Shown one piece after another: positions 14,423 through 59,970 of a stretch of 61,270 nucleotides of DNA. A program made the position numbers and the translations under genes. The notes below the pieces were generated by a model. That model made no database searches. It saw nothing but the letters and a program-made list of their open reading frames with translations, and was not told the origin of the DNA. The stretch is from Marine Group II euryarchaeote MED-G34 (GTDB lineage: Archaea; Thermoplasmatota; Poseidoniia; Poseidoniales; Thalassarchaeaceae). Each line of letters begins with the position of its first letter. Position 1 is the first letter of the stretch. The stretch lies in NCBI GenBank assembly GCA_002457605.1, contig NTJT01000004.1, positions 1 through 61,270 on the forward strand, in the 5' to 3' direction.

Positions 14423-15219
14423 CCATACATTGAGCCAGGAGCATCTCCAGTCTCACTGGGCGGGTTCAGATGCAAGGCCATCATCTCACGGATTTCGCCC
14501 TCAATTCTCTGTGCCTCTGCCAACAGCGGCTCGGGATCGAGGTGCACAGCAGGAAGTAGGTCGTCGAGGCACTCGATGATACGAGCCGCCGCTCTGGCAT
14601 CTGGCATACTACCGCCAATCTCGCCGTCGGACTCTGCAAGGATTGTCATCACGTCAATCTCTCTTCTCCTGCCTTCTCCCATCATGACTCCAGTGATGCC
14701 CCCGACAACGCCCTGTTTCAGCAGTGGCACCCCGAGCTCCTTCAGAGTACTACGCGAGGCATCGGTGGAACCTATGCCGAGAATGGTTTCTTCACTCCGG
14801 TCATCGTCAAAGATAGAGTGCTGCTGTCCAATTCCTTGTGCGTACGAGTCGATTAGAATAGTCGCCCCTACCCCATTCTCCGTGCACCAATCGAGTAGAG
14901 TGTCGGCCAGAGGTAGATTCAGTTCCGGGATGACTTGTATCTCAGATGCTATCAGAACCACCTTGTCGCACCTCTCCATAGTGCAGAGCGGCTCCCCTGA
15001 GTAGAATCTCATCGGCGGCAATGGCTTACCGTTTTGGACTAAGCATACAGGAGGGAGTTTGGGGTGTCTGACACCTCCGACTAACTCTAGATCTAACTTG
15101 TCGACAAGATAGTGCGCCACGATGCTACTGACAAAACCAATAGATGGGAAGCAATTGACAACTAGGGCACCAGCTGCATTAATCTTCGAGTCTACCTCTA
15201 CCTTCGGTGGCTCCGTCAT
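14419..15219 (-). CDS. PAC2-family protein (archaeal PbaA/PbaB-like proteasome assembly chaperone homologue)
   Basis: 266 aa. The N-terminus GALVVNCFPSIGFVSSIVAHYLVDKLDLELVG is typical of PAC2/COG1938. The extreme C-terminus ...SMYG fits the HbYX (hydrophobic-Tyr-X) proteasome-docking motif. Confidence 0.7.
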   Translation of the reverse strand: MTEPPKVEVDSKINAAGALVVNCFPSIGFVSSIVAHYLVDKLDLELVGGVRHPKLPPVCLVQNGKPLPPMRFYSGEPLCTMERCDKVVLIASEIQVIPELNLPLADTLLDWCTENGVGATILIDSYAQGIGQQHSIFDDDRSEETILGIGSTDASRSTLKELGVPLLKQGVVGGITGVMMGEGRRREIDVMTILAESDGEIGGSMPDARAAARIIECLDDLLPAVHLDPEPLLAEAQRIEGEIREMMALHLNPPSETGDAPGSMYG

Positions 15220-15250
15220 GTCACGTAATCCCAGCCAATGCTGTTAACCG

Positions 15251-16438
15251 TTGTCACGCCCGGACCTACCTTGGGGGAGAGGCTTGGAAGAAGGGTTCAC
15301 CGCGCACCAACTCTCACCTTCCTCATGGAATCGCTACGAGGATTGTCCTCGGAAGTACTGGCTCTCCCGACAAAGACTTCCTCGCAAGGCCAGTATGCCT
15401 GCTGCCATGGGTACAGCAGTACACAACTCTGTTGAGGACCTGTGCAATCTCGACCTTTCTGACAGGGAGGACTCCGAGGACGGTTGGCTCCCTCCGACAT
15501 CGAAAGCCGTACTCGACCGCCATTGGGCACTCGAACGTGACATCTTCCTTGCAACTCCGCGCCACCCTCGATGGAAGGACGAGATGATTACCAAAGCGCA
15601 CGACGGCCTGGTCGGAGCACTAAACATCCTATTCTCTAAGTCTAACATGGACAAGGTAGGACTCTCTGAAGTTACTGTTGGCCAGTGGAAACAGGTCCAG
15701 GACATTGTGCTGTCCAATGAGGGGACCCTAGTGTCTGAATGCGGCCGCCTGATGGGGCGCCTCGATCTGCTAGTAGCCGATCTTGACGAGAACGGTAAAT
15801 CGAGGGGTTGGATAGTCGCCGATCTCAAGACCGGAAATCCTCCCAAGCAAAAACTCAACGAGAAGGTCAGTCGTCAACTCAGGTTTTATCGAGATCTATT
15901 GAAGGAAATAAATCCTGATCATCCCCCTGTCTACGCCGAGGGCTGGTACTCATCGAACCAGACCGTGCACCGGGCTGACGGACCCTCGGTCCTCGACGAT
16001 GCTTTTGCAGCCTGGGAGGGCATGAGGTTCACAGAGGAGCCCTTGGAAGGCACCCCCGGAGAGATGCAGTGCGGGTTTTGCGAGTGGAAGGCCTGGTGCC
16101 CGGTGTGGTGGAATGCGAGGAGGGATGGCATCCTCCCTCCTGGCAGTATGTTCCGCGACGAAGTGGTCAGCACTGTCAGGTTCGACCCCGAATCAGGCGC
16201 CGCACTGTTCGAGCGAATGCCTCCAATCGGAGTTGATGGCGAGCTGGCGCACTCAGACCACCGCTTCGGAGCCATTCTGCGTGACCAAGCACTCGACCAG
16301 ATGCGCGAACTGATGGATTCGGGCTATGATGGGGCGATATATCTTGGCAGCGTCAGGGTGGACGGCCAGATAGTCCACCTCGGAGACTGGTGTGAGGTAC
16401 TCCCGTGGACACCACTACTCAAGTCAATTAGAAAATGA
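15251..16438 (+). CDS. Cas4/AddB-family PD-(D/E)XK nuclease with a 4-Cys Fe-S motif and a roughly 110-aa C-terminal extension
   Basis: The first Cys is in WNRYEDCPRKYW. The nuclease core is GRLDLLVADL...IVADLKTG...SRQLRFYRDLL. The C-x2-C-x5-C triad is CGFCEWKAWC (16070-16099). No in-frame ATG precedes the conserved N-terminus, so the apparent start is TTG at 15251. Confidence 0.75.
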   Translation: MSRPDLPWGRGLEEGFTAHQLSPSSWNRYEDCPRKYWLSRQRLPRKASMPAAMGTAVHNSVEDLCNLDLSDREDSEDGWLPPTSKAVLDRHWALERDIFLATPRHPRWKDEMITKAHDGLVGALNILFSKSNMDKVGLSEVTVGQWKQVQDIVLSNEGTLVSECGRLMGRLDLLVADLDENGKSRGWIVADLKTGNPPKQKLNEKVSRQLRFYRDLLKEINPDHPPVYAEGWYSSNQTVHRADGPSVLDDAFAAWEGMRFTEEPLEGTPGEMQCGFCEWKAWCPVWWNARRDGILPPGSMFRDEVVSTVRFDPESGAALFERMPPIGVDGELAHSDHRFGAILRDQALDQMRELMDSGYDGAIYLGSVRVDGQIVHLGDWCEVLPWTPLLKSIRK

Positions 16439-17002
16439 GTCGAGCAAGTCGTCGACCGAACCCTGGAACTTGTTGGGGTGGGCCTGCATTATCCTCCACA
16501 GTAGCAACAACGTTGCACCTGCATCTACATCGGCCTGATGACTCCTCTCCATAGCAATCCCGAACCTGTGACAGAGGTGTCCTAACGTGTGCCGCCCTGG
16601 TATCCCAAGCCTCCTTGCTAGGACTAGAGTGTCGATGATGGCCCGAGGTCGCGGAGTTTCGACGCCGGCGCGCATGCACTCCATCTCGAGGAAGCGCCAG
16701 TCAAACTGCAACACATTGTGCCCTACGATAATCGAGTCCTCCACTATTGAAGAAATCCCTGCGATGTGCTGGGCAAAGTCGCTTGCCTCCCTGACATCAT
16801 CATCGGTTATGCCGTGCACTTTGGTGGTCTCAGCAGGAATCTTCACTCTTGGATTGACTAGTGACTGCAGGTTGATGTGACTACCATCTGCATCGCTGCC
16901 AATAAACGCGAATTGCACAATTCTGTCAGACCTGTGGCTGAAGCCGGTGGTCTCGAGATCGAAACCAAGCACTCTGTAGCCAGTGAGCATTGCACCAGAC
17001 AC
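16424..17002 (-). CDS. DEDDh 3'-5' exonuclease (DnaQ / Pol III epsilon-like)
   Basis: ExoI is GFDLETTG, ExoII is VGHNVLQFDWRFL, and ExoIII is HQADVDAGATL. 192 aa. Confidence 0.85.
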   Translation of the reverse strand: MSGAMLTGYRVLGFDLETTGFSHRSDRIVQFAFIGSDADGSHINLQSLVNPRVKIPAETTKVHGITDDDVREASDFAQHIAGISSIVEDSIIVGHNVLQFDWRFLEMECMRAGVETPRPRAIIDTLVLARRLGIPGRHTLGHLCHRFGIAMERSHQADVDAGATLLLLWRIMQAHPNKFQGSVDDLLDSFSN

Positions 17003-44594: not shown

Positions 44595-47500
44595 ATGCGC
44601 CAGCCTAGCCGACACCAAAACGTCCTCCCGATAGCCCTCGTGATACTGCTTTTGGGGATGTCAGCCTCAGTAACTATTGACTCGGGAGACAGATCCAAAT
44701 TGGCTGAGGATAAGCCCGCCCTTGAGACTCATGCGAACTCCACTCTTCACTTCCCCGGATCTCAAGCCGGCTCGATATATTCGTCCTCCACAGTATCTGC
44801 CTCATATGACAATACTTGTGCAGTATTGGATAACAATTCAGTGAAGTGTTGGGGTGAAGGCCAGGTCGGAAGAGGGGGTTGGGGTGACAACAGTGATCGA
44901 AGAACTCCAACACATGTTTTACTCGGCTGGCAGTCCGGAACGCCCAGTTTAGCCACCGAAGTTGGACAGGGCTCCGGGGCCTCGGGACACCACACTTGTA
45001 CTATTATGGTCGATGGCACAATTCAATGCTGGGGTGAGGACTTCAGTGGCCAAATCGGCCACGGCGGAAATTCTGGGTGGCATACTACTCCATATCCAGT
45101 AACGATGCCTGCAGGAAAAACTGCTATACAAGTATCAAATGGAGGGCATCACACTTGCGCTATTATGGATGACCATTCTCTCTATTGTTGGGGAGAAAAT
45201 AGTGAAGGAATAGTAGGAACCGGTCAACGTGGCAACGATCATACTACTCCTTACCCAATCGACCTACCCGCCGGCCGAACCGCTGTTGCTGTGTCTACTG
45301 GATGGAAAAACTCCTGCGTTATCTTGGACGACGGCACTGGAATGTGCTGGGGCCTGAACACGGTGGGCCAAATAGGGGATGGAACTACTACTAACAGAGA
45401 CGAACCGACACCGATAACAATCCTCCCAACAAGCAGTACGTTGGCTGCGATAGCAATTGGTGGTGGCGGTGGCACTGGTGCTACTAATGGCAGCGAATCT
45501 GGGACAACAACCTGTGCACTATTGAATAATGGTAGTGTAGCTTGCTGGGGCAAAAACGATGTTGGCCAATTTGGAGATGGAACAACCATATCCTCCACCT
45601 CTCCCAAGTATGCCTTACTACCACCCGGCCGAACCGCGATATCGATTGATGTAGGAAGATTCCACGCCTGTTCAATTCTAGATGACAACAGTAGCGTATG
45701 TTGGGGGAACAACACCGATGGACAAATCGGTGATGGGACTACTATTACTCGACTCACACCAACATATGTGGACTTCCCCAACGGACATTTCTCAACTATA
45801 TCCACAGGGCAGTACCACACCTGTGGTGTCGCATCCAATGCATCAGTACACTGTTGGGGTAAGCATGAGGATGGCGCACTCGGTTTGGGCACTTCTGACG
45901 GCGTGAATATTCAAGATAGCGACATCCCTGCATATGTTGAACTAGGAGATATAACTCCGAACTCGACGGTTCTTGCATCCGCCTCCTTAGGCGAGAGAGA
46001 TCACGACAACGACGGCATTGTTTCAATATTCGATTCTACTCCATGGGTTGCTGAATCATGCTCTCCGGGTCAGTATTTGTCTGGTCTGCAGTGCATAGAC
46101 GCCTCTCCCGGGCACCACGTACCTTACCATGACATGACTGAGCAATACGAATGCTACCCTGGAACCTATCAACCAAATTACGGGCAGAGCTCTTGCATAG
46201 ATACCTCGCCCGGGTACTTCACCGACGTCAATGGCTCGATCGACCAGAGCCCATGCTTCGCAGGGACCTACCAGCCTGCCGATGGTCAATCTTCGTGTAT
46301 TGATGTCGATCGAGGAAATTACAGCGATGCAGGATTAGCCTATCAGATACCCTGTCCACCGGGAACCTACCAGCCCGACCCCGGCCAACCATCTTGCTTA
46401 GATGCAGATCCGGGGAACTATGTTTCTGAACCCCAACAATTCGACCAGACCAAATGTTCGCCGGGAACCTATCAGCCCGTGGCAGGTAAGACCGGCTGCT
46501 TCTTAGCAACGGAAGGGCATTACGCGCCAGGCTTTGGTTCTACAGATCAACTGGCATGTGAGCCTGGGACCTACGCACCATCGTCTGGCATGGACTCGTG
46601 TCACCCTGCCGACCCCGGGTACTATGTCACCGATGGTGGGGGCATAGCTCAGATGGCCTGTCCGGCTGGTTCGCATCAACCGACTCCCGCATCGATTGGT
46701 TGCTCTCTGGTCGATCCAGGGCACTACGCACCTGAGCCAGGGACACCCTTCCAGATACCATGCCCAGCGGGCAACTATCAACCAGGCACCGGTTCACAGG
46801 ATTGTATCGAAGTCGCTTCAGGTCACTATGCACCAGGCCCTGCCGCTACTTCACAAACTGAGTGTGATGCTGGTAGTTATGCACCTGAGAGCGGTATGGG
46901 TGAATGTCTGTTCGCTGATCCAGGCCACCATGTCCCCGATGTAGGTTCAGACTCACAGACTGCATGTTCTGCCGGATACCATCAGCCGGCTTCGGGCGCT
47001 TCGGAGTGCCTAGTCAACCAGATCGGACATTACACGGATGAGAGTGGAATTGCAGAACAGATACCTTGCTCACCCGGGACCTACCAGTCGATGATTGGTG
47101 CAACATCCTGTTCCGAGGCCGACTATGGTTTCCATGTCCCCAACTCGGGCTCCGCGGGCCAGGAGGGCTGCCTGATAGGCACCTATCAGTCACATACCGG
47201 ACAATCAGAATGCATCGACGCTGAGGCGGGACATTACGTTGACACCCGCGAGGCTGCAGTGTCCACCGCTTGCGAGCGCGGGACCTACCAGCCTGAGAAA
47301 GGACAGACGGAATGCATAGACGCAGATGCGGGCAAACATGTCCCTTCGACCGGCTCTCCAACTCAGACACCTTGCGAGCGCGGCACCTTCCAAGAAATGA
47401 TGGCACAGGCAGAGTGTATTGAATCTCAACCTGGATATTATGTATCAACCAGTGGTGCTGATTACCAGACGGCCTGCAAGGCAGGCACGTATCAAGACAC

Positions 47501-47867
47501 TGCAGGTAAGATGAGTTGCAAGGAGGCAGACGTCGATCACTTCGTCGCTGAATCCGCAGCGACCAATCAGGAGAAGTGCAAGGATGGCTCAACGCAGCCT
47601 GAGCAAGGGCAGACGAGTTGCATTGAGGCTGACAACTCTGTAATCATGATGGGTGTGGCAGCCGCCGTCGCAGCAATCGGATTCATAGTAGTCTATACTC
47701 AGTTTCAGAAAAAGGAGAAGGCACCAAAGCGCCGTAAGAAAATAGACTCTAAACTAGGTCATTTGGGCGATCAGAAGGGCAAGCGCAGAAAGCGACCCGC
47801 GAAGGGCAAGCGCAGAAAGCGACCCGCGAAGGGCAAGCGCAGAAAGCGACCTCCTCAAGGTGAGTGA
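44595..47867 (+). CDS. Secreted, C-terminally anchored protein with RCC1-like beta-propeller repeats, about 17 ephrin-receptor-like Cys repeats, a TM helix and a poly-basic tail
   Basis: The signal anchor is VLPIALVILLLGMSA. The RCC1 pattern (C..L.D.SV.CWG.N..GQ.GDGTT..R..P) occurs about 7 times. The C-PGTYQP--GQ-SC----PG-Y repeats follow. The TM helix is VIMMGVAAAVAAIGFIVVY. Confidence 0.85.
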   Translation: MRQPSRHQNVLPIALVILLLGMSASVTIDSGDRSKLAEDKPALETHANSTLHFPGSQAGSIYSSSTVSASYDNTCAVLDNNSVKCWGEGQVGRGGWGDNSDRRTPTHVLLGWQSGTPSLATEVGQGSGASGHHTCTIMVDGTIQCWGEDFSGQIGHGGNSGWHTTPYPVTMPAGKTAIQVSNGGHHTCAIMDDHSLYCWGENSEGIVGTGQRGNDHTTPYPIDLPAGRTAVAVSTGWKNSCVILDDGTGMCWGLNTVGQIGDGTTTNRDEPTPITILPTSSTLAAIAIGGGGGTGATNGSESGTTTCALLNNGSVACWGKNDVGQFGDGTTISSTSPKYALLPPGRTAISIDVGRFHACSILDDNSSVCWGNNTDGQIGDGTTITRLTPTYVDFPNGHFSTISTGQYHTCGVASNASVHCWGKHEDGALGLGTSDGVNIQDSDIPAYVELGDITPNSTVLASASLGERDHDNDGIVSIFDSTPWVAESCSPGQYLSGLQCIDASPGHHVPYHDMTEQYECYPGTYQPNYGQSSCIDTSPGYFTDVNGSIDQSPCFAGTYQPADGQSSCIDVDRGNYSDAGLAYQIPCPPGTYQPDPGQPSCLDADPGNYVSEPQQFDQTKCSPGTYQPVAGKTGCFLATEGHYAPGFGSTDQLACEPGTYAPSSGMDSCHPADPGYYVTDGGGIAQMACPAGSHQPTPASIGCSLVDPGHYAPEPGTPFQIPCPAGNYQPGTGSQDCIEVASGHYAPGPAATSQTECDAGSYAPESGMGECLFADPGHHVPDVGSDSQTACSAGYHQPASGASECLVNQIGHYTDESGIAEQIPCSPGTYQSMIGATSCSEADYGFHVPNSGSAGQEGCLIGTYQSHTGQSECIDAEAGHYVDTREAAVSTACERGTYQPEKGQTECIDADAGKHVPSTGSPTQTPCERGTFQEMMAQAECIESQPGYYVSTSGADYQTACKAGTYQDTAGKMSCKEADVDHFVAESAATNQEKCKDGSTQPEQGQTSCIEADNSVIMMGVAAAVAAIGFIVVYTQFQKKEKAPKRRKKIDSKLGHLGDQKGKRRKRPAKGKRRKRPAKGKRRKRPPQGE
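46059..47621 (+). repeat. Coding array of about 30-aa Cys-bounded repeats (ephrin-receptor-like / GCC2_GCC3-like)
   Basis: CxxGTYQPxxGQxxCxxAxxGHYxxxxGxxxQxxC repeats head to tail. Confidence 0.75.
47774..47851 (+). repeat. 27-bp perfect tandem repeat, about 2.9 copies, encoding (KGKRRKRPA)3
   Basis: gaagggcaagcgcagaaagcgacccgc occurs at 47774-47800 and 47801-47827. A third copy from 47828 diverges after 24 nt. Confidence 0.9.
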
Positions 47868-50010: not shown

Positions 50011-53000
50011 ATGCTCGGTGATGCCATGTCCTCGGAAACCCTCGTTCAAGTGACTTGTGAAGAGGTGCCTAGAGGCAATAGCCCGGCATGGCTCACAGAG
50101 CATATTCTGAGACAGTCGTTGGGTCCAACAGGATCCGAGTCAGATCTCTCAGGAAGAGTTCTGGTCGTCTACCCTAATGATGAATCCAGAAAGCAGGCTC
50201 TTGCTGAAATGCCGATAAATCAGGCGATTGACAGCACACTCCACCATACCATCGACTCTCTAAAGTCCTCACTGGTGGCGGATTTGAGGTTGCCAAGGGT
50301 TCTGAGCACTGAGGGCGGCTTTGAACTGGTGTTGCATGAGGCCTGTCGTCGCGAGGCGGCAAGGCTAGCATTTCCGATGATTAATCCACTGCCGGAGATG
50401 AGGTGGGGCAGGGGAAAGACCGCAGCTCTGGCGGAGTTGCACTCGTACCTGACGCGAGAGTCGGCCGAGGCCGCTTGGGACGGCCCAGGGATTGTTTCCT
50501 TTGGCTTCATCATCAGGAAGCTCGAGAGGCGATTGGGAGGAACTCACCCTGATTTGGTCGCCTCTCGCATCATCGGTGGATTGAACAGAGGGGAGAAGCC
50601 GTTCTCTCTGCTCGATGTCGATGGCATAATCATGCTCGACCATCCTCCAGAGCTCCCCCGCTCGCACATTGAACTCATGCTAGCAGTTTCGAGGCACTGC
50701 CCCATCCACCAATTGGCCCACCCAGGAAACTTTAGGCTTGGACACCACGGCATGCTCCTACTGGACCAACACCCAATCAAGACCCAATCAGACCTTCCTC
50801 TATGGGTGCCGCCGCACCAGCCAGAATCAACTCCTCCCGAGTCGTCTACCGAGCGCATGCTGCTGCAGAGGGAGAAACATTCCTTCGAGGTGACGATTGA
50901 GTTGATACGAGAACGTCTTGAGTCAAACACTTCTTCCAATCTTATCATCGTGGATCCGGCGCTGGAATCTAACCTACCACAATGGAAGAGGTGCCTGAAG
51001 GCACTCGGGGTACCACTTCCTCCTTCGCGCCAACCGGCACACACTCATTCTCTGGGCCACTGGCTAATCGCTTTGGCAACCCTGCCCCACGGTCCCGATG
51101 CATTCTCCCTTGAGGCATTGAGGTCTTTCTCTCTACAAGCGACACTCAAGCCATTCGAAAGCCCCGATGCTCACCCCACGGAGAACAAGATCAGTCCGCT
51201 TGCTGATCCTGACATGTTGACGGAAATGGCTCGCAGCGAGCATGTGCTGGGTGGCCCCGGAGCTCTCGCTAGATGGCTACAGACGATAGCGAGACCGCCG
51301 ATATCGGAGCGCGACCAGTTCAGAAAAGAGTCGACGCAGTGGTGGCTTCTTTGCCTCGTTGATTCCCTGAGGCCGTTACTCACGGGGGAGGATCGCGCAG
51401 TCCTCGATGAGGCCAGCAGAGTGGGCTGCCACACAGGGCAAAAACTCCCGATGATTGAGTCTTCAGCCAGTGCCGATAACTGGCTGCTCTCCATACTCGG
51501 AATGATTGACCTAGAGTCCGCGATGGAGTCGTGTGACGGTGAGGGCCCCACTCCGTCAGCGGTGGCTCAAGCCGTAGTCAAGGACATTCAGGCGCTCAGG
51601 TTGATGCAGTCCAGTATGGGTCACAACGCACCTAAAATGGGCCCAAAATGGGTTGATGAGTTCACTCCACTCGTCCGCTCCTCAAGCATCCAAAGCGGTT
51701 CTTCACTAGCCTCTGGAAGGGTCAGGGTACTCACTCCATCTGCCGCTCTTGGCTGCACTGCCGATACCATCATTTTAGCAAATCTGTCGAGCTCCTCGTG
51801 GGATCTCAGAGCCCCGAAGATGGCCTTTCTCGGCGACGAGGAGAGACATTCACTGGACCTGCTCCGACCGGATGGCCCAATCAGAGCAGCAAGGCACCAA
51901 CTCGAACACCTTCTCGCCGCGGCTCCCGAAGTCTTAGTCCTCGATCCGAGCCTCGATGATGCGTCCCCGGCAGCCGCTCCTATTCGAGAGTGGGCAGCAG
52001 CTCACGACCCCAGTGACGACGCCGAGGTGATGCGCACTGAGCCCGAGCAACCGGTCAGCCCACGCGATCTCAAGCAGTCCGACGGAATTTCCCTCAGGAA
52101 CATGCTTCCTCTAGCCCGTGCACCTCTCAACCCCAGTGCCATATCAGTATCAATGGACTCGGAATTGCAGCGCAATCGCGAGAGACGGCAACCGAGTCAT
52201 GCCGATGACGATGGATACCTAGCCCTAACTTCTGTCCAACACCTGTTCTCTATTGACAGGACAGATCTGACCCGTCGGACTCCGCCTGGCATCGAACCTC
52301 CTCGCTCGCATGACAGGTGGCCCGTGGTTGGAGGCTTTGTCGCTGGAGGCAAGAGGACCCCTACCATCGACCCCCGGCCATTCGTCCCTCATGCAACCGG
52401 TACGAATGTCAGCGATTCGAGGCACGGTCATTCAGTAGGAGCTGAGCAGGATGTCCCTATCTGGTCGCCGAGCAGGCTACATTACTGGCTCAAGTGCCCG
52501 AGAATGGGTTGGTTGTCGAATGGACTCAGAGCAGAGGAGGACGAACTGCAGGCTGAGGACCTAGATCCACGTACCCACGGTGAGCTACTTCACAATGTCC
52601 ATCACGATCTAATCTGTCAGACTCTTGGGTTCGAAATTGGTATTGAGAGGCCTTTCGGAGAAGGCAGCTCTGTCAGCAGCGTCGCCCAATCTGGTAGGAG
52701 CGAGGACGAGCTGATGCAAATAGCACTCGAGTCTCTAGACAGCCGAGCCCCTTGGCTCGACAGGACTGACGCGGTTTCTACTCATAGGCTGATGATACTG
52801 ACTGGGATGAGCAGAGACGAGTGGAATCGATGGTTGACTAATCCCTGCCCTGTACCACCATCGGGAAGGGTTGGGACCATTGTAAGGGCCGAATCAACAG
52901 TCAGTCATGCCTCACCGGTTTGTCTAGAATGGAGCGTGGCTGATTTCGATGAGAAAGGAATCGAGATATCGATACCAAAGAATCTCTCTGGAGGCGAGCA

Positions 53001-53598
53001 GCTTCCGCCGATTCGGGTTCGAGGCTACATAGACAGGGTCGACATCCTACCGCTAGATGAGTCCACTAAAGAGTGGCTAGATCCTGATGGTGAGGAGAGC
53101 GTCGCTCCACTCAGAATCCACGGTTCGGGGTGGAGACCGCGCCGCTTAGTGGCAATTAGGGACCTCAAGACCTCTGAAAGCAAGGCCGCAAAGATACGAC
53201 ATTCCGATGGATTGCTCGATGAACTCCAATTGGCGTTGTACGCGAGGGCATGGGAGATTGCTCACCCAGGTGACTTGGTGGTCGCTGCTGGGATCTCCCT
53301 GTTCAGTCACCACACCGAGCACATGCTGGAACTATCTTCGCATTACTCTGCAGCCCACAGTAATCTCCTGCTCGGTACTCGTACGGACATCACCACATCA
53401 CTGCACAGATTTCCCGACGAGCCGCCTTCTCCGCACAGTGACCACTTCAGGGCATGGCTCACACAGCGCCTAGCAGTGGCGCTACGTGTCGCAGCCGGGG
53501 CTGCTGCGGGAAGAGTCCACCCGACTCCCTCACCAGGAGTGTGTGGCTACTGTCCGGTGAGGAATGCCTGCGAAGTCAGGATGGAGGCTGGTTTCTGA
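50011..53598 (+). CDS. AddB/AdnA-like subunit: degenerate helicase-like scaffold (no Walker A seen) plus a C-terminal RecB-family Fe-S nuclease
   Basis: The C-terminal nuclease reads YWLKCPRMGW ... GYIDRVD ... IRDLKTSES ... LQLALYARAW ... CGYCPVRNAC. The start is uncertain: TTG at 49984, or ATG at 50011 or 50026. Confidence 0.75.
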   Translation: MLGDAMSSETLVQVTCEEVPRGNSPAWLTEHILRQSLGPTGSESDLSGRVLVVYPNDESRKQALAEMPINQAIDSTLHHTIDSLKSSLVADLRLPRVLSTEGGFELVLHEACRREAARLAFPMINPLPEMRWGRGKTAALAELHSYLTRESAEAAWDGPGIVSFGFIIRKLERRLGGTHPDLVASRIIGGLNRGEKPFSLLDVDGIIMLDHPPELPRSHIELMLAVSRHCPIHQLAHPGNFRLGHHGMLLLDQHPIKTQSDLPLWVPPHQPESTPPESSTERMLLQREKHSFEVTIELIRERLESNTSSNLIIVDPALESNLPQWKRCLKALGVPLPPSRQPAHTHSLGHWLIALATLPHGPDAFSLEALRSFSLQATLKPFESPDAHPTENKISPLADPDMLTEMARSEHVLGGPGALARWLQTIARPPISERDQFRKESTQWWLLCLVDSLRPLLTGEDRAVLDEASRVGCHTGQKLPMIESSASADNWLLSILGMIDLESAMESCDGEGPTPSAVAQAVVKDIQALRLMQSSMGHNAPKMGPKWVDEFTPLVRSSSIQSGSSLASGRVRVLTPSAALGCTADTIILANLSSSSWDLRAPKMAFLGDEERHSLDLLRPDGPIRAARHQLEHLLAAAPEVLVLDPSLDDASPAAAPIREWAAAHDPSDDAEVMRTEPEQPVSPRDLKQSDGISLRNMLPLARAPLNPSAISVSMDSELQRNRERRQPSHADDDGYLALTSVQHLFSIDRTDLTRRTPPGIEPPRSHDRWPVVGGFVAGGKRTPTIDPRPFVPHATGTNVSDSRHGHSVGAEQDVPIWSPSRLHYWLKCPRMGWLSNGLRAEEDELQAEDLDPRTHGELLHNVHHDLICQTLGFEIGIERPFGEGSSVSSVAQSGRSEDELMQIALESLDSRAPWLDRTDAVSTHRLMILTGMSRDEWNRWLTNPCPVPPSGRVGTIVRAESTVSHASPVCLEWSVADFDEKGIEISIPKNLSGGEQLPPIRVRGYIDRVDILPLDESTKEWLDPDGEESVAPLRIHGSGWRPRRLVAIRDLKTSESKAAKIRHSDGLLDELQLALYARAWEIAHPGDLVVAAGISLFSHHTEHMLELSSHYSAAHSNLLLGTRTDITTSLHRFPDEPPSPHSDHFRAWLTQRLAVALRVAAGAAAGRVHPTPSPGVCGYCPVRNACEVRMEAGF

Positions 53599-56500
53599 TG
53601 CGTCTGAATACCGCCCAACGCCTCGCGCTCAATTTGGATGCACACATAGTCGTCGACGCTGGGGCAGGCACCGGCAAGACCAGTACGATTGTTGATCGCG
53701 TCATCGAGCACTATCTGACCGAGGATCAGAGAGCAACTCGACTACTCCCTAAGCCCGAGCGCCCATCCAAGTTGCAAGGGGGTATGATAGCCGCCCCAGC
53801 AGCAGAGCGTATAGATCTCAGGGAGTGGGGAGGCTTGCTTCCAGGGGAAGTAGTGCTGCTGACCTTCACCAACCGTGCAGCCGATGAGATGAGAGACAGA
53901 CTGCGACGAAGCATCGCCCGGCTGCGGCCCGGACCCATAGGGGATGACGGGACTTGGCGCAGCGATCCTAGAATCAGGCACAAGGGATTCAGCGAACAAC
54001 TCCTGACGCTGCTCGAGGACGCACCAATAGGAACCATCGATGCGTTCCTCAATCAACTGGTCTCACCGTACCGAGGTATCCTCGGAGACGCTCTAAGCCG
54101 AGACAACGTCTCGGACGCAGGCAGGATTCTGCTGGTGGAGTCTGCCTTGAACACCCTCTGGAGGTTGCCGAGTTCGGTCTCTCACATCGGAGAGGCGGTT
54201 GATGCGGGCATCCCAGCTGAAATCGCTCCAGATGTACTAGCAGCCAGAGACAGGATTGCGCGACATTACTCAGGGCGGCGCTCTGCAGCTAGGGTGCTGC
54301 GCAGCCTAGTGGGAAGTTCCGTGTTCATTGAGGAGGCAGCTCGCAGGATAATGGATGGCGACACCATCACCTCCGAGTTGCTACACCAACAGATTATGGC
54401 ATCAGTAGATGCCAACGAGGTCGCCGAACACGCGACTGAGATCCATTCTATCGCACAGCGTTTCTGTGATTTGGTAAGGGAAAATTCAGCATCCATGGCG
54501 CTCACTGGGTGGCCAGCTGATTCTAGGATGGCCTGCTTGGACTCCCTATGCAGCGAGGGGCCGCCTGAAGATGCATGGGGGCAACTGACATGGCTGAGTC
54601 ACACTCTAGTCTGCACCCTCAACTCCTCAGCCCTAATGAAGAATAACCCGACTTTCTTCCCTCATTCTCACCTCCCCTCTGATTCATGGGAGGCTGGTAT
54701 AGAGAAGTACTCGAAAATTCAAGACGCTCACTCCAAGGCACGCGTCAAGGATGAAATCAGTGACATAGTAACAGATCTCAAAGCCGCTTGGTCCTCCGAT
54801 CGCGGCAGACTGATGCTGCACTTCACGCGAGTTGCCATGCTGCTCAGTGACTCAACTCCTCCTGCTTCTCCCGCAGATTGGACTCCTCCGTTAACCCCTC
54901 TCCAGATTCCTCTACCTGAGCGAATCGATGGCTCTGCTTCCAGTCACTACTTTACTCTCGATGCCGAAGTTCGCAACCTACAGGATCTATACCTCGCTCA
55001 CCGGGGCTTCCAAGGTATCATCAGGAAACTCAAGGAGAGGGACGAGGTCCACGACTTTGACGACATCCAGAGACTAGCCGGAGATTTGCTTTTGGCTAAC
55101 TGCCCCTCAACATGCAGATCGTTCTACCACTCTTCGATGCAGGATGCTCTGGACTCGTTGACGGATAGCCCATGGCGTGATGATCACATCGATGCGGCGT
55201 TCGCAGCCCTCGAGCGTCTGGAGGCCAATCCTAGTATGGCCGGAGAGGCGGCTTCGAGCCTCGGCGCCATCCGCGCCGACCTCGAGAGCAGGTATAGCCG
55301 ACTGATGACAATCAGGAGACGCTACCGAGCCTTCATCATCGACGAGGCTCAAGACAACTCACCACTCCAGTGGAGACTACTCTCGAGATTATGGGGTGAG
55401 AGGCGCGTAGACGAAGGAGAACCGAACGCTCCCGATACTCCATGGCAGCCAACAGTTTGCTACGTGGGAGACGTTAAGCAGAGCATTTACGCATTCAGAC
55501 AAGCAGAGGTCACTGGTTTCCTCGAATTCGCGAGGCAGTTGATGGCGGTTAATGACCACGAACTGGCGGGAGTCCCAGAGTTAACACGCAAGCCAGCGCT
55601 CAGAAAAGACTCCCACAGTCGCGATCCAAGGAACGCACACTCTCTGACCATCGCAACAGCTACTGAATACATGGAACAGGGAGGGAGGGATCTAGTTGCT
55701 TGGATACCCTTCGACGCGACCGATCGCGACCTGCCCGCTCCGAGTGGGGCCGAGGTCAAGAACCGCAGGAGGGGATTGATTGCTCTGCAGGTGAACTATC
55801 GCACCAGTGGAGGACTTCTGAGGGCGATGAACGAGTGGTGGGAAGACGTCTTTTCAGACAGACACCGACTTTTTCCCAACGGTGATTTCTACGCCACCCC
55901 TCAGACGTTATTCGCATGCCCGGACAAGCGCGATACTCCAGGAGCCATTGAGTGGTTATGTCCTTTGAGCACCGGAGGAGATTCCAATCCACCCACTGAC
56001 TTGACCACGCACCTAGATCCGTTCGGTGAGGGCAAGCCAGACTCTCTCGAGCGCCAGGCCCTGCTGATAGCTCGACGCGTTGGTAGCCTCATCGACGGTT
56101 CACCAGTCAATGTTAGGTCAGCAGATGGGAAGTGGCATCAAGTGGATGCTGAAGACCCTGTTTCTCCCAGTGAAATCATGATACTGCTTCCCACTAGGCC
56201 GAATATCAGGGACGTGGTTATCAGACATCTCCATGACCACGGAATTCCAGCTCAGGCAGACCGGGAGGGAGGATTGCTGGACAGACCGGCCGCACACGCC
56301 CTTGAGGGATTGCTACAGTTTGTCGCTAGACCTAGGTCGCGCCACCACGCTTCCTGGGTAGCCCGCTCCGTTCTGATTGGTCTGGACGACGCCCAGTTGC
56401 AGGACTACATCGGAGGTGCACAACGGGGGGAAGATTTGCTGTCCCGATTAGTGGAGCATTGCTCGAGTGATTCTCAACGGGCCTTGGTAGAGAGGTGGCG

Positions 56501-58514
56501 ACAACTGTCCGAATCGGGACGTCTAATCGATCTTCTGGATGAGACCATAGACAGGTCTGATTTACTTACTGCCTACCCCGATCCCGTCTCACGTCAAGAC
56601 GTCGAGCAAATTGTTGATGTCATCAGAGCATTGGCTGCTGAGGTCGGAGGTGACGCAATGGTCCTAGCGGACAGGATACGCGATCTCAGAGAGCGTAGCG
56701 CCGGCGCCCTTGAGGCCATCACCATCCCACCCAGTGATGCTGTCAAGGTGATGACAATTCACAGCGCCAAAGGGCTTGAGGCCAAGGTAGTGGTATTGGC
56801 CGATGTCTTCTCCAACAGGCAGACCAACATGAGGAACGAGAACCTCAGCCGTCTGATAGTGAGTCCTGAACTCTTCGCAGGAAATCCCAAGCCGTGGTCT
56901 AGCGAACCCTCTCCTCACTCTGCGCTGTGGTCCCACGTTCAGGTGTTGCATCAGGCTCGCAAGGATGCTGAGGCTCGAAGGCTGCTGTATGTAGGTGCCA
57001 CACGTGCGGAGGAGAGACTGATTGTGGTGGGCTCGAATAGAGGAACTGAGTGGGCCGAGGGAGAGGGTCTACGGATGCCTTGGTCCTACGACAAGAAGAT
57101 ACCTCAATTGGGTCAAATGTGGATCGAATCATTGCGCCAAGGCTCGTTGAGGCGAGCGGAAACTGCTTCACCGTGGCTAGATGAGGGTGACGACAACGAC
57201 GCTCCAGCCATCAGAACCAGAGGCCAGCGCACCTTCGATCCCACCAGAATGTTCTCCAACGCCTCTCTAGGCGGCAACTCAACTCTCCCTGGCATGCTTG
57301 TAATCCACCACCCAGACTGCTTCGAGGATGCTGACAATTCACCTGTGCTGACGCCGCTACAACGTATCGAGAGGCTGGATGATGCCGCCAACTCCTTGGT
57401 AGAGTCTGAGGACCCTGCTCCTCCTAGACAGGACTCAGCACCTCGAATCAGAATCACTCCGAACAGACTCCCGGTGTTCCAAGAGTGTCAACGGCGACAG
57501 TGGTTCGAGACCAAGGGTGGCCTGAGTCCGGATCCGATAGTACCCAGTGAACAAGCACATTTATCGAAAGGGATGCCAGCTAACGTTGATCCTGCGACTC
57601 TCGGTACCGTTTTCCACAGGATACTGGAGATAGGAATCGGCAATCCTGGTCTCGACGGCGAGCCGGCGAGCTCCCCACTCCAAGCATCATGGACGGAACA
57701 CAGAGAGAATCTTCTGTCAGATCCAGAGACTCATTCCACGGTGTTCACAGAACTTCTTCCTCCTGACGCTGACCTTCAGCGAACCCGCCTTCTGGTTGAG
57801 AGCATGGCAGAGCGCATTGGCTCTGGACCCATGGGCAGGATGGTGCAGCGTGAATTGGTGGACGACCACAGACTCGAAGGACTCAGAACGGAGATGCCGT
57901 TCCATATCTCCATTGATGTCGATACAGGGGGCTCAGTCAGGCAACGTTGGAGCCCTGAGGGACCCGAGCTCTTGGCGAACATGGATAAGGCCACTATCGA
58001 GATGAACGGAATCATCGATCTCGTGCTGTGCACGACGACTCCAAACGGTGGTTCTGCTATCCGAGCTGTCGATCTAAAGACCGAGGATGCCGGATTAATC
58101 GATAACGACTCCTCTGAGGGTCTCCTCGAAGCCCTCGGCTCGGAGGACTCTGGACCCGCTTGTGAAGCCGAACTCGAGATACTGAACAAGCACCGCATGC
58201 AACTGGCCCTGTACTATCGTGCGTTACAGAGCATAGAGGACGCGAGAAAAGCGGCCAATCTAGGGTGCAGGACTGTCTTGCCCCCTGCCATACTGGTTGG
58301 AGTGACTGGCAGGATGGTCGAGTACCCAAAGGAGATGCTCGATCTAGCATCACAGGAGTTGGAAGAACTGCTTGTTAGGACTGCTGGCATGGCTCTGGCT
58401 TCAGACGCCCCGCTGTCAGATTTCGACAGGCTCCCGGCAGAGTCCGCCCACATATGCGAGAACTGCCCATTCCATCGCGGTGCGCTACCTATCTGTGGTC
58501 CTGCGGAGCATTAA
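53598..58514 (+). CDS. AddA/AdnB-like UvrD-family SF1A helicase fused to a C-terminal RecB-family nuclease (1638 aa)
   Basis: Helicase motifs are DAGAGTGKT, LLTFTNRAADEM, FIIDEAQDNSP, VGDVKQSIYAFRQA, VNYRTSG, MTIHSAKGLEAKVV and LLYVGATRAEERLIVVG. The nuclease reads IIDLVL ... VDLKTED ... QLALYYRAL ... CENCPFHRGALPIC. The start ATG overlaps the upstream stop (TGATG). Confidence 0.88.
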   Translation: MRLNTAQRLALNLDAHIVVDAGAGTGKTSTIVDRVIEHYLTEDQRATRLLPKPERPSKLQGGMIAAPAAERIDLREWGGLLPGEVVLLTFTNRAADEMRDRLRRSIARLRPGPIGDDGTWRSDPRIRHKGFSEQLLTLLEDAPIGTIDAFLNQLVSPYRGILGDALSRDNVSDAGRILLVESALNTLWRLPSSVSHIGEAVDAGIPAEIAPDVLAARDRIARHYSGRRSAARVLRSLVGSSVFIEEAARRIMDGDTITSELLHQQIMASVDANEVAEHATEIHSIAQRFCDLVRENSASMALTGWPADSRMACLDSLCSEGPPEDAWGQLTWLSHTLVCTLNSSALMKNNPTFFPHSHLPSDSWEAGIEKYSKIQDAHSKARVKDEISDIVTDLKAAWSSDRGRLMLHFTRVAMLLSDSTPPASPADWTPPLTPLQIPLPERIDGSASSHYFTLDAEVRNLQDLYLAHRGFQGIIRKLKERDEVHDFDDIQRLAGDLLLANCPSTCRSFYHSSMQDALDSLTDSPWRDDHIDAAFAALERLEANPSMAGEAASSLGAIRADLESRYSRLMTIRRRYRAFIIDEAQDNSPLQWRLLSRLWGERRVDEGEPNAPDTPWQPTVCYVGDVKQSIYAFRQAEVTGFLEFARQLMAVNDHELAGVPELTRKPALRKDSHSRDPRNAHSLTIATATEYMEQGGRDLVAWIPFDATDRDLPAPSGAEVKNRRRGLIALQVNYRTSGGLLRAMNEWWEDVFSDRHRLFPNGDFYATPQTLFACPDKRDTPGAIEWLCPLSTGGDSNPPTDLTTHLDPFGEGKPDSLERQALLIARRVGSLIDGSPVNVRSADGKWHQVDAEDPVSPSEIMILLPTRPNIRDVVIRHLHDHGIPAQADREGGLLDRPAAHALEGLLQFVARPRSRHHASWVARSVLIGLDDAQLQDYIGGAQRGEDLLSRLVEHCSSDSQRALVERWRQLSESGRLIDLLDETIDRSDLLTAYPDPVSRQDVEQIVDVIRALAAEVGGDAMVLADRIRDLRERSAGALEAITIPPSDAVKVMTIHSAKGLEAKVVVLADVFSNRQTNMRNENLSRLIVSPELFAGNPKPWSSEPSPHSALWSHVQVLHQARKDAEARRLLYVGATRAEERLIVVGSNRGTEWAEGEGLRMPWSYDKKIPQLGQMWIESLRQGSLRRAETASPWLDEGDDNDAPAIRTRGQRTFDPTRMFSNASLGGNSTLPGMLVIHHPDCFEDADNSPVLTPLQRIERLDDAANSLVESEDPAPPRQDSAPRIRITPNRLPVFQECQRRQWFETKGGLSPDPIVPSEQAHLSKGMPANVDPATLGTVFHRILEIGIGNPGLDGEPASSPLQASWTEHRENLLSDPETHSTVFTELLPPDADLQRTRLLVESMAERIGSGPMGRMVQRELVDDHRLEGLRTEMPFHISIDVDTGGSVRQRWSPEGPELLANMDKATIEMNGIIDLVLCTTTPNGGSAIRAVDLKTEDAGLIDNDSSEGLLEALGSEDSGPACEAELEILNKHRMQLALYYRALQSIEDARKAANLGCRTVLPPAILVGVTGRMVEYPKEMLDLASQELEELLVRTAGMALASDAPLSDFDRLPAESAHICENCPFHRGALPICGPAEH

Positions 58515-58557
58515 TGCTCAGCGAAGACTCCATGTGCTGAGGGCCTCACACAAGCCC

Positions 58558-59970
58558 ATGGAACCTGATCTTGATGCCCTCGCCCAACGTAGTGACGAGT
58601 TATGGGAAGAATCGATACTCCCCAGCCTGATGGATTTCGTGGCCATCCCCGCTCTTTCCCCTGGATTCGATCCCAATTGGGCCGAGACTGGGGATCTGGA
58701 CGCCACCGTAGAATTGTTCTGCGGCTGGCTCGACACACAGTCCATCGACGGTATGTCGTACGAGGTCCACCGTATTGGGGAGCGCAGCCCAGTTCTGTTA
58801 GTGACAATTGAGGGCACGGGTCCCGGAGAGGTCCTGTTTTACTCCCATCTCGACAAGCAACCGGCTCGCCCTGAGTTGTGGTCAGAGGGTCTGCACCCAT
58901 GGAAGGCGGTCCGACGTGAGCCTTGGCTTTTCGGCCGTGGAGCACTCGACGATGGGTACGGTGGCTACCTGTGCGTGACCTCGGTCAGGATGCTACAGGA
59001 GCAGGGCGTTGCATACCCTACCTGCCGTTTTATCATCGAAACCTGTGAAGAATCTGGCTCGTACGATCTCCCTGAGTATCTTGACGCCCTAACCGACGAC
59101 CTCGGCAGCCCCAATCTCATTGTCGTACTCGATACTGGAGGCGGTGATTACGAGCACATCTGGGTGACCGATGCTCTGCGTGGACTACTGGCTGGAACCC
59201 TCTCTGTACAGGTTTCCCACGAAGGCATACACTCAGGTCACGGAGGAGGTGTAATACCCTCATCCTTCAGGATAGCAAGGATGCTACTCAACAGGGTCGA
59301 GGACTCGGATACCGGTGAGGTGCTAATCCCTGGGATGCACGTGCCAATCACCGAGGAGGTCAGAGCACAGTCTGATTCACTAATCGAACTTCTAGGCGAC
59401 ACGGTATGGGACGATCTCCCGGTGGTCGATGGCATGCGACCCCAGACACCGGGTGCGGCAGAGATGCTCCTGAACATGAACTGGAGGCCGTGCATGTCGG
59501 TAATCGGGGCCGATGGGATGCCCCCAATACAGACGGCTGGAAATGTTCTCAGGACCAACACCGATCTCAAACTCAGTTTCAGAATCCCTCCCGGGGTTGA
59601 CTCAGAGGCCGCCATCTCTGAGGTCAAGAGGATCCTCGAGGAGGACCCGCCATACGGTGCAAAGGTCACATTCACACCAGATGCAGTCTCTGACGGCTTC
59701 CGCGCCCCCCCTCTCTCCTCAAGTGCCAGTCAAGCCCTCTCTGAGGCCGCGAACAGCATTAGTGGGCTGCCACCAATGACAATCTGGCTGGGGGGAACAA
59801 TTCCATTCCTAGCGATGATTCAGGGCAAGTACCCCGACGCCCAGTTTCTGTGCACCGGCACAGGGGGGCCAGGCAACAACGCTCACGGGCCGGATGAGAA
59901 ACTGCACATCCCAGCTTCAAAGAGGCTCACTGCGGTACTGTCTGCAACTGTAGCCGCAGTTTCTAGATGA
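58558..59970 (+). CDS. M20-family metallopeptidase (dipeptidase-like)
   Basis: LMDFVAIPALSP..DP.W ... VLFYSHLDKQP ... GRGALDDGYG ... ETCEESGS ... NAHGPDE. Start set to the ATG at 58558, after the addA-like stop. Confidence 0.85.
   Translation: MEPDLDALAQRSDELWEESILPSLMDFVAIPALSPGFDPNWAETGDLDATVELFCGWLDTQSIDGMSYEVHRIGERSPVLLVTIEGTGPGEVLFYSHLDKQPARPELWSEGLHPWKAVRREPWLFGRGALDDGYGGYLCVTSVRMLQEQGVAYPTCRFIIETCEESGSYDLPEYLDALTDDLGSPNLIVVLDTGGGDYEHIWVTDALRGLLAGTLSVQVSHEGIHSGHGGGVIPSSFRIARMLLNRVEDSDTGEVLIPGMHVPITEEVRAQSDSLIELLGDTVWDDLPVVDGMRPQTPGAAEMLLNMNWRPCMSVIGADGMPPIQTAGNVLRTNTDLKLSFRIPPGVDSEAAISEVKRILEEDPPYGAKVTFTPDAVSDGFRAPPLSSSASQALSEAANSISGLPPMTIWLGGTIPFLAMIQGKYPDAQFLCTGTGGPGNNAHGPDEKLHIPASKRLTAVLSATVAAVSR

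Follow-up and report, generated by a model that had tools for sequence, protein, structure and literature searches.

A probable AddAB-type helicase-nuclease pair, strongly diverged, in the core genome of the marine archaeal order Poseidoniales

Reviews and recent papers describe RecBCD and AddAB as absent from archaea and assign end resection to Mre11-Rad50-HerA-NurA; a 2026 preprint still has both enzymes absent. Among the characterized enzymes of this kind, an iron-sulfur (Fe-S) cluster has been described for AddB and AdnA, not for AddA or AdnB, and in AdnAB the upstream subunit AdnA holds the Fe-S nuclease at the fork junction (PMC13000450). Here we describe two adjacent genes, B and A, in a 61,270-nucleotide (nt) stretch of DNA from the Marine Group II euryarchaeote MED-G34 (contig NTJT01000004.1, assembly GCA_002457605.1). 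This whole stretch is called the window, and its host belongs to the Thalassarchaeaceae (Poseidoniales, Marine Group II). In the surface ocean, no planktonic archaea are more abundant than the Poseidoniales. An earlier reading of the window from its letters alone, the original prediction, had proposed an AddAB/AdnAB-like helicase-nuclease pair in an archaeal backbone. We conclude that B and A are probably the subunits of an AddAB-type heterodimeric helicase-nuclease in the Poseidoniales core genome. A literature search found no paper tying Marine Group II to AddAB, RecB, Rad50 or Mre11, and none describing the Poseidoniales pair.

The listing of open reading frames (ORFs) gives two long co-directional ORFs on the + strand, 49984/50011-53598 and 53454/53598-58514. 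The genes and their parts are as follows, in window positions.

50011..53598, + strand: gene B, AddB-like subunit, 1195 amino acids (aa); ORF with ATG at 50011, other possible starts TTG 49984 and ATG 50026
53598..58514, + strand: gene A, AddA-like helicase-nuclease, 1638 aa; ORF, start ATG 53598-53600
53596..53600, + strand: TGATG stop/start overlap joining B and A, read from the sequence
50011..52452, + strand: N-terminal body of B, residues 1 to ~814; helicase-like fold (Foldseek), no ATPase motifs
51661..51954, + strand: degenerate motif V/VI-like stretch of B, residues 551-648 (RVLTPSAALGCTADTIILANLSSSSW ... RPDGPIRAARH); weak AddB sequence matches
52453..53595, + strand: B nuclease domain, PD-(D/E)XK with a four-Cys quartet; PDDEXK_1, 1e-12
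53598..57047, + strand: A motor region, residues 1 to ~1150; superfamily 1A (SF1A) UvrD-type motifs; Pfam UvrD-helicase, AAA_19 and UvrD_C
57450..58511, + strand: A nuclease domain, residues 1285-1638; PD-(D/E)XK of the Fe-S "iron-staple" (Cas4/AddB) type; PDDEXK_1 model positions 1-243 of 247

The two genes overlap by one base: the B stop codon TGA (53596-53598) shares its A with the ATG of gene A (53598-53600), and the junction reads ...TTTCTGATGCGT... Of 33 orthologous loci, 32 have a T(G/A)ATG overlap of this kind. The gene order, a nuclease-only subunit followed by a helicase-nuclease, is the same in every bacterial or haloarchaeal AddB/AddA-like pair that we saw.

Gene A encodes a complete motor. 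Its motifs are Walker A GAGTGKT (residue 22), Ia TFTNRA (89), II DEAQD (582), III GDVKQSIYAFR (624), IV NYRT (733), V TIHSAKGLE (1053) and VI VGATRA (1132). Motifs I, Ia, II, III, IV, V and VI are invariant in 15 orthologs, and large insertions lie between Ia and II. Pfam recognizes UvrD-helicase (E value, 3e-29), AAA_19, UvrD_C (6e-13) and PDDEXK_1 (3e-10, residues 1285-1626). Among NCBIfam models, addA_alphas (1e-39), recB (8e-34) and addA_Gpos (2e-31) rank ahead of PcrA, UvrD and Rep, and the best Protein Data Bank (PDB) sequence match of the A profile is Bacillus subtilis AddA (3u44_A, 5e-18). In a neighbor-joining (NJ) tree, the A proteins of Poseidoniales come together as a single clade (100/100) on a long branch within the AddA-like radiation; short UvrD/Rep helicases and single-protein UvrD-nuclease fusions lie elsewhere. 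A grouping of Poseidoniales with haloarchaea was recovered in 16/100, and the tree resolves neither the sister group nor the donor.

Subunit A also has further cysteines that are invariant across the Thalassarchaeaceae: C502 and C506 (window 55101-55115), C621, C788, C1241 and C1478. The first two belong to an NCPxxC motif within the large insertion between motifs Ia and II, and not all of the extra cysteines are retained in the most diverged lineage (locus L115). Judging by these residues, a second metal site in A is possible.

The body of B is of a different kind. Regular-expression searches found no Walker A and no motif II in B; Walker A is also missing from 31 of 32 family representatives, and the single match is probably due to chance. 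No Pfam domain falls in the body, and the only Pfam match in B is PDDEXK_1 (1e-12, residues 1047-1188). Sequence links between B and AddB are weak and confined to residues 551-648 and the nuclease domain. Residues 551-648, the sole part of the body that matches AddB by sequence, hit addB_alphas (TIGR02786) with an E value of 0.0075 (0.0016-0.0086 for two relatives) and align with a haloarchaeal AddB-like protein in hhalign at 2e-4; the B nuclease matches that of a Halalkalicoccus AddB-like protein in BLASTP at 7e-5. Furthermore, when a small database of AddAB-like loci was searched with the B profile, the AddB-like partner ORFs were hit. Foldseek with the AlphaFold model of B places AddB (1.4e-9), AdnA (8.9e-9) and RecC (2.9e-6) on top and UvrD/Rep/PcrA after them, matches that count as a ranking and not as structure because the model is of low confidence. 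Five AddB chains of B. subtilis lead the list together with AdnA (E values of 1e-9 to 1e-8), with RecC next. As far as the model can be trusted, the list is headed by just those subunits that act as ATPase-dead or motor-like partners in the three known end-resection machines. The body of B is presumed to be an inactivated SF1 scaffold.

Both proteins end in a PD-(D/E)XK nuclease with its catalytic residues in place: D1008, D1051-x-K1053 and Q1073..Y1077 of B are invariant in 32 orthologs, and D1474, D1492-x-K1494 and Q1535..Y1539 of A are invariant among orthologs. Each nuclease also carries four cysteines. The B quartet consists of C829 (nt 52495-52497) and C1178-x2-C1181-x5-C1187 (nt 53542-53571) and is invariant (32/32 orthologs); the CxxCx5C tail is found in 31 of the 32 family representatives. 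In A, the quartet is C1297 (nt 57486-57488) with C1620-x2-C1623-x9-C1633 (nt 58455-58496). Here C1297, C1620 and C1623 are invariant (29/29 orthologs), and C1633 is present in 24 of 29. The A protein of five Thalassarchaeaceae lineages (L020, L024, L028, L032 and L039) has a shortened C terminus in which C-x-C-x2-C-P replaces C-x2-C-x9-C, so that three C-terminal thiols are still supplied. Copies with as little as 30-39% identity still have the C-terminal triad of A, and in L115, the most diverged of all, the quartet is complete. On the aligned sequences, this conservation of cysteines and nuclease motifs is far beyond chance. Each quartet most likely binds a metal cluster, probably [4Fe-4S]. 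With a four-Cys cluster in each nuclease domain, the enzyme would hold two clusters, not one.

The fold of the A nuclease points in the same direction. The core of the AlphaFold domain model has a predicted local distance difference test score (pLDDT) of >90, and the top 10 Foldseek matches are all Fe-S nucleases: AdnA, ACE1 (Cas4-family), AddB and Dna2. RecB first appears at rank 11, and AddA and AdnB are not among the matches listed. A profile of this domain gave nothing significant against PDB sequences. The A and B nucleases align end to end in hhalign, from the first Cys to the CxxC (97%, E value of 5e-11). We considered whether the A nuclease was copied from that of B. At equal power, profile versus single sequence, the E value is ~1e-4, similar to that of haloarchaeal nuclease matches. 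Because haloarchaeal nucleases are no less similar, we do not claim a domain duplication.

What had been observed in the letters was borne out in full. This holds for the coupled co-directional ORFs with TGATG at 53596-53600, for the full UvrD/PcrA SF1A motif set and C-terminal PD-(D/E)XK nuclease of A, and for a B subunit without Walker A but with the same type of nuclease. The cysteines around each nuclease had been placed at exactly the right coordinates, and the conservation of both quartets in homologs, which the original prediction had proposed as a check, holds up. The AddAB/AdnAB-like identity also agrees with our results, A scoring best against AddA/RecB models and the fold of B against AddB/AdnA/RecC. 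Two further proposals gave a mixed outcome. Searches with hidden Markov models returned UvrD-helicase, UvrD_C and PDDEXK_1, with AddA as the best family, but neither subunit reaches the curated AddA/AddB cutoffs. The subunit phylogeny gave a single A clade in the AddA-like radiation but no sister group.

Several results weigh against the AddAB assignment. A scores 136.7 bits against a curated cutoff of 860.75 for the NCBIfam AddA equivalogs (TIGR02784/02785), and B scores 14.4 bits against 486.5 for the AddB equivalogs (TIGR02786/02773). Both cutoffs are missed, and by those models the pair is therefore a remote relative rather than an equivalog. When run against 1.84 billion representative sequences, the B profile found only 254 proteins, and no fewer than the 150 top-ranked of these appear to be members of the family or pieces of them. 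The profile thus does not bring up canonical bacterial AddB in any quantity, and B is a sequence orphan. The model of full-length B has low confidence (pLDDT of 57.8; predicted template modeling score of 0.36), its TM-scores against AddB are about 0.23, and the Cys tails are of low confidence in both the B and the A-nuclease models (pLDDT of <50 in the latter). Finally, we know of no Chi sequence in archaea. A search of PDB sequences with the B profile gave nothing significant, and 174 B homologs of ~1190 aa were found. Database records call the B subunit only "hypothetical" or "PD-(D/E)XK nuclease family protein."

We then considered where the pair occurs. A first scan of one genome per species gave 39 loci at 51-98% identity, all in Poseidoniales/Thalassarchaeaceae assemblies; the best match is a Ca. 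Thalassarchaeum metagenome-assembled genome, at 98%. A wider profile scan returned 177 relatives; the 80 that were kept are all Poseidoniales, down to 40% identity, and B homologs also carry Poseidoniaceae names. At all 39 first-scan loci, as far as the contigs reach, the order is the same: an RCC1-repeat protein, threonine aldolase, an unknown ORF, B, A, an M20 peptidase and a coiled-coil protein. The MCM-GatE...B-A-M20 arrangement is kept even on the 3.0-Mb metagenomic contig with the most diverged copy (L115). The ratio of nonsynonymous to synonymous substitution rates (dN/dS) against four orthologs is 0.06-0.08 for A and 0.09-0.12 for B. Two details of the gene models should be added. The mechanical ORF of the M20 peptidase (58372-59970, + strand) begins inside the 3′ end of gene A; ortholog alignment indicates a true start near 58531, ~17 nt past the stop of gene A. 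A or B is split into two frames in L016, L022, L034 and L116, the last on a contig with 1.4x coverage, and these splits are probably assembly errors, not pseudogenes.

The protein family is bacterial in type, and Marine Group II genomes come mostly from metagenome bins. Both points would fit a pair that is a bacterial contaminant, a product of chimeric assembly or a recent transfer. However, the same locus with the same archaeal neighbors is present in 39 independent assemblies, including single-cell genomes and contigs of 0.5-3 Mb. The contig of the window itself carries MCM and GatE, and Trm1 and two PAC2 proteins are further archaeal markers there, alongside a bacterial-type NAD-dependent ligase. 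The G+C content of the gene pair is 0.55-0.57, inside the window range of 0.49-0.57. No close bacterial homolog was found, the best bacterial A protein in the sample scoring 103 bits against the A profile. The shared neighbors, G+C content, dN/dS, kept overlap and lack of viral relatives make contamination, chimerism, recent transfer and a mobile defense island all unlikely, and we regard the contaminant explanation as practically negligible. The archaeal backbone of the original prediction was thus confirmed. Its alternative of horizontal acquisition or a diverged variant proved not to be either/or: the pair is old, vertically inherited across the order and extremely diverged.

Another reading is that the pair is mainly an antiviral/anti-plasmid defense nuclease, kin to UvrD-Cas4-like fusions or Gabija-like UvrD helicases, that destroys invading DNA. 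RecBCD and AddAB themselves destroy foreign linear DNA, and the AddAB-like pairs of haloarchaeal megaplasmids adjoin BREX, transposase and restriction enzyme genes. A link to defense has been reported for the UvrD-Cas4-like fusions of bacteria and mesophilic archaea (PMC5704561), and A shares that domain architecture, with a Cas4-type nuclease. The Poseidoniales locus, however, has fixed synteny and housekeeping flanks in 39/39 first-scan genomes, and there is no methylase, restriction or other defense gene near the pair in the window or at these loci, in line with the earlier statement that no defense island flanks it. IMG/VR viral contigs contain no relative of B. PADLOC gives no match for B, and its matches for A are generic GajB helicase ones of at most 67 bits, weaker than the 137 bits for AddA. 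Presence across the order under strong purifying selection is unlike the patchy spread typical of defense genes, and the single-protein UvrD-nuclease fusions branch separately in the NJ tree. We consider it unlikely that defense is the main role of the pair.

The pair is most likely a double-strand-break resection machine, and we modeled the steps of a proposed mechanism on AddAB of B. subtilis and AdnAB of mycobacteria. The complex would bind a double-stranded DNA end. The sole active SF1A motor, in A, would move 3′ to 5′ on the 3′-ended strand and unwind the duplex, while the C-terminal nuclease of A would cut the 3′ strand. B would be an ATPase-dead helicase-like scaffold, perhaps one that checks the 3′ strand for a Chi-like signal, and its nuclease would cut the 5′ strand. 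The product would be a 3′ single-stranded tail for the recombinase, here RadA. Like RecBCD and AddAB, the enzyme would also degrade unprotected linear foreign DNA. The heterodimer, strand assignment, polarity, cluster type, Chi control and cooperation with RadA are features that we infer from these analogies.

A helicase-nuclease could instead serve another chromosomal task, such as the processing of stalled or reversed forks, Dna2-like flap/Okazaki processing or strand removal in excision repair. UvrD-family motors serve several repair pathways, and the nuclease fold of A also matches Dna2. Elsewhere in the window, a bacterial-type LigA, a solo Cas4-like nuclease and a DnaQ-like exonuclease make up a mixed, partly bacterial-type set of DNA enzymes. 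Yet two subunits with two nucleases, one motor and an ATPase-dead partner is a layout specific to AddAB, AdnAB and RecBC(D). Dna2 has an SF1B motor and is one polypeptide chain, and no uvrABC or replication genes are linked to the pair in the window or at the conserved locus. In our judgment, such a task is quite improbable as an account of the pair. The other genes of the window are as follows.

2448-10439, + strand: probable surface protein, 2663 aa, with cupredoxin, Big_1 and DUF4129 domains
12284-14422: NAD-dependent ligase LigA, bacterial-type, with BRCT domain
15251-16438, + strand: solo Cas4-like Fe-S type PD-(D/E)XK nuclease, 395 aa; PF12705, 4e-22
16424-17002, - strand: DnaQ-like RNase_T 3′-5′ exonuclease
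44595-47867, + strand: probable surface protein, 1090 aa, with RCC1 repeats and ephrin-receptor-like repeats

The ligase, the Cas4-like nuclease and the DnaQ-like exonuclease form a small DNA-enzyme cluster (12284-17002), with a PAC2 proteasome-chaperone gene interleaved. The Cas4-like protein, the third such nuclease in the window, has the full pattern CPRKYW ... DLKT ... QLRFY ... CGFCEWKAWC; no CRISPR-cas genes were seen in the window. The RCC1-repeat surface protein (44595-47867) is the conserved upstream neighbor of B/A and diverges fast (33-99% identity).

Returning to break resection, a bolder proposal is that the pair is the main resection enzyme of Poseidoniales, feeding RadA, maybe under Chi-like control, and replacing or dominating Mre11-Rad50-HerA-NurA. 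We put this forward tentatively and find it rather doubtful. If true, it would be the first Chi-type AddAB-driven recombination system in Archaea, a hybrid of bacterial resection and archaeal/eukaryotic-type strand exchange. The AddAB-type assignment itself would mean that such a pair is conserved as core genes of a whole, globally abundant archaeal order. If active, the enzyme raises the questions of how a bacterial-type resection motor passes DNA to RadA, whether archaeal genomes hold Chi-like signals, and why an aerobe in iron-poor, brightly lit surface water has two Fe-S clusters in one repair enzyme. AddA-type subunits with Fe-S nucleases also appear to make up a variant of the AddAB family that is widespread but unstudied. 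Marine Group II is well known to have taken up genes across domains, and this, together with the other archaeal pairs and the bacterial double-Cys pairs described below, tempers the interest of the finding.

Several known systems resemble the pair in part. RecBCD has three subunits, including the SF1B RecD, whereas the Poseidoniales locus has no third helicase gene; RecC lacks nuclease catalytic residues, and those of Poseidoniales B are intact. In Gabija, GajB pairs with GajA, an OLD-family nuclease, while no GajA neighbor occurs at the Poseidoniales locus. UvrD-Cas4-like single-chain fusions of bacteria and mesophilic archaea, described as defense-linked, resemble A in that an SF1A UvrD-type helicase is fused to a pfam12705 Fe-S nuclease (Hudaiberdiev et al. 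2017, PMC5704561). They differ in standing alone or being linked to type III restriction-modification or Dcm/Vsr, without a conserved AddB-like partner, and as ~1000-aa single chains they branch apart from the Poseidoniales clade. AdnAB (PDB 6PPR, 9NP6) is closer: it is a heterodimer of two UvrD-like/nuclease subunits, and AdnA is the top fold match of the A nuclease and the fourth for B. However, AdnA has a nucleotide-binding motor-like domain, with AMPPNP bound (PMC13000450), and a cluster is described in AdnA only, whereas a Cys quartet is present on both Poseidoniales subunits. AdnAB enzymes have nucleotide-binding UvrD-like motors on both subunits; B, without Walker A and motif II, does not fit this description.

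Haloarchaeal megaplasmids carry AddAB-like pairs as well, for example in Halomicrobium salinisoli (NZ_CP084467.1; L118, 3755-10571) and Halalkalicoccus (NZ_CP144124.1; L119, 2263-9301). They are annotated generically as "PD-(D/E)XK nuclease family protein" and "UvrD-helicase domain-containing protein." Like the Poseidoniales pair, they have archaeal hosts, overlapping B-then-A genes and a B without Walker A that has four Cys, with CxxCx5C, and nothing else from outside the Poseidoniales in the sample matches the A profile as well (127-154 bits). In contrast, their A lacks the C-terminal Cys triad, their size is canonical (~1060 and 1210 aa), and a sister relationship to Poseidoniales A is unsupported (16/100 bootstraps). 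Their neighbors are BREX (PglZ, BrxL), restriction enzymes, a transposase and an integrase; since they are plasmid-borne in such company, they are mobile or defense-associated, not core. These canonical pairs contradict the blanket claim that archaea lack AddAB, and they also correct the original prediction, which had described the two-subunit layout as that of the bacterial AddAB/AdnAB machine.

That prediction had further called the Fe-S staple typical of AddB and Cas4, not of AddA. This is right for the model systems but does not hold for bacteria at large. In a crude survey of 80 bacterial AddA/UvrD-like loci, which were returned by a scan dominated by the generic motif II pattern and also served for the NJ tree, the Cys tail was on the B-type subunit only in ~17, on the A-type only in ~10 and on both in 2. 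AddA-like proteins with a Cas4-type tail occur in Phascolarctobacterium, Ignavibacteria, Planctomycetota and several Actinomycetota, and in L123, L131, L139, L144 and L180 the tail is on the AddA-like protein but not on its partner. The two double-quartet pairs, checked residue by residue, are those of Tumebacillus lacus (L188, 1673-8630) and Ca. Aquicultor (L156, 701-7241). They share with the Poseidoniales pair a distal Cys and a CxxCx5-9C tail on both nuclease domains, and they score highest with addA_Gpos and addB_Gpos, though under the cutoffs. Unlike it, they are bacterial, of canonical length and AddB-like by sequence (112-175 bits, against no significant match for Poseidoniales B). A limited literature search found no characterized bacterial AddAB-like pair with a Cys quartet on the AddA-type subunit.

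The system most like the Poseidoniales pair is AddAB (RexAB; B. subtilis PDB 3U44, 4CEH). Both have adjacent genes in addB-then-addA order, one active SF1A motor with a RecB-family nuclease in A, and an ATPase-dead helicase-like body with a 1+3 Cys Fe-S nuclease in B; AddAB also gives the best sequence match for A and the best fold match for B. The closest type is presumably that of alpha- and epsilonproteobacteria, whose AddB we take to lack a Walker A. The differences are substantial. Poseidoniales A is ~400 aa longer than a typical AddA, with large insertions, and its nuclease has its own Cys quartet and resembles the AddB/Cas4 type rather than that of AddA. B is not recognized by AddB models, the scores of the pair lie far under the curated cutoffs, and the host is an archaeon with RadA as its recombinase. 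This kind of system is already known, and the Poseidoniales pair is a strongly diverged variant of it, distinguished by the longer A, a B unrecognizable to AddB models, Cys quartets on both subunits and fixation in the core genome.

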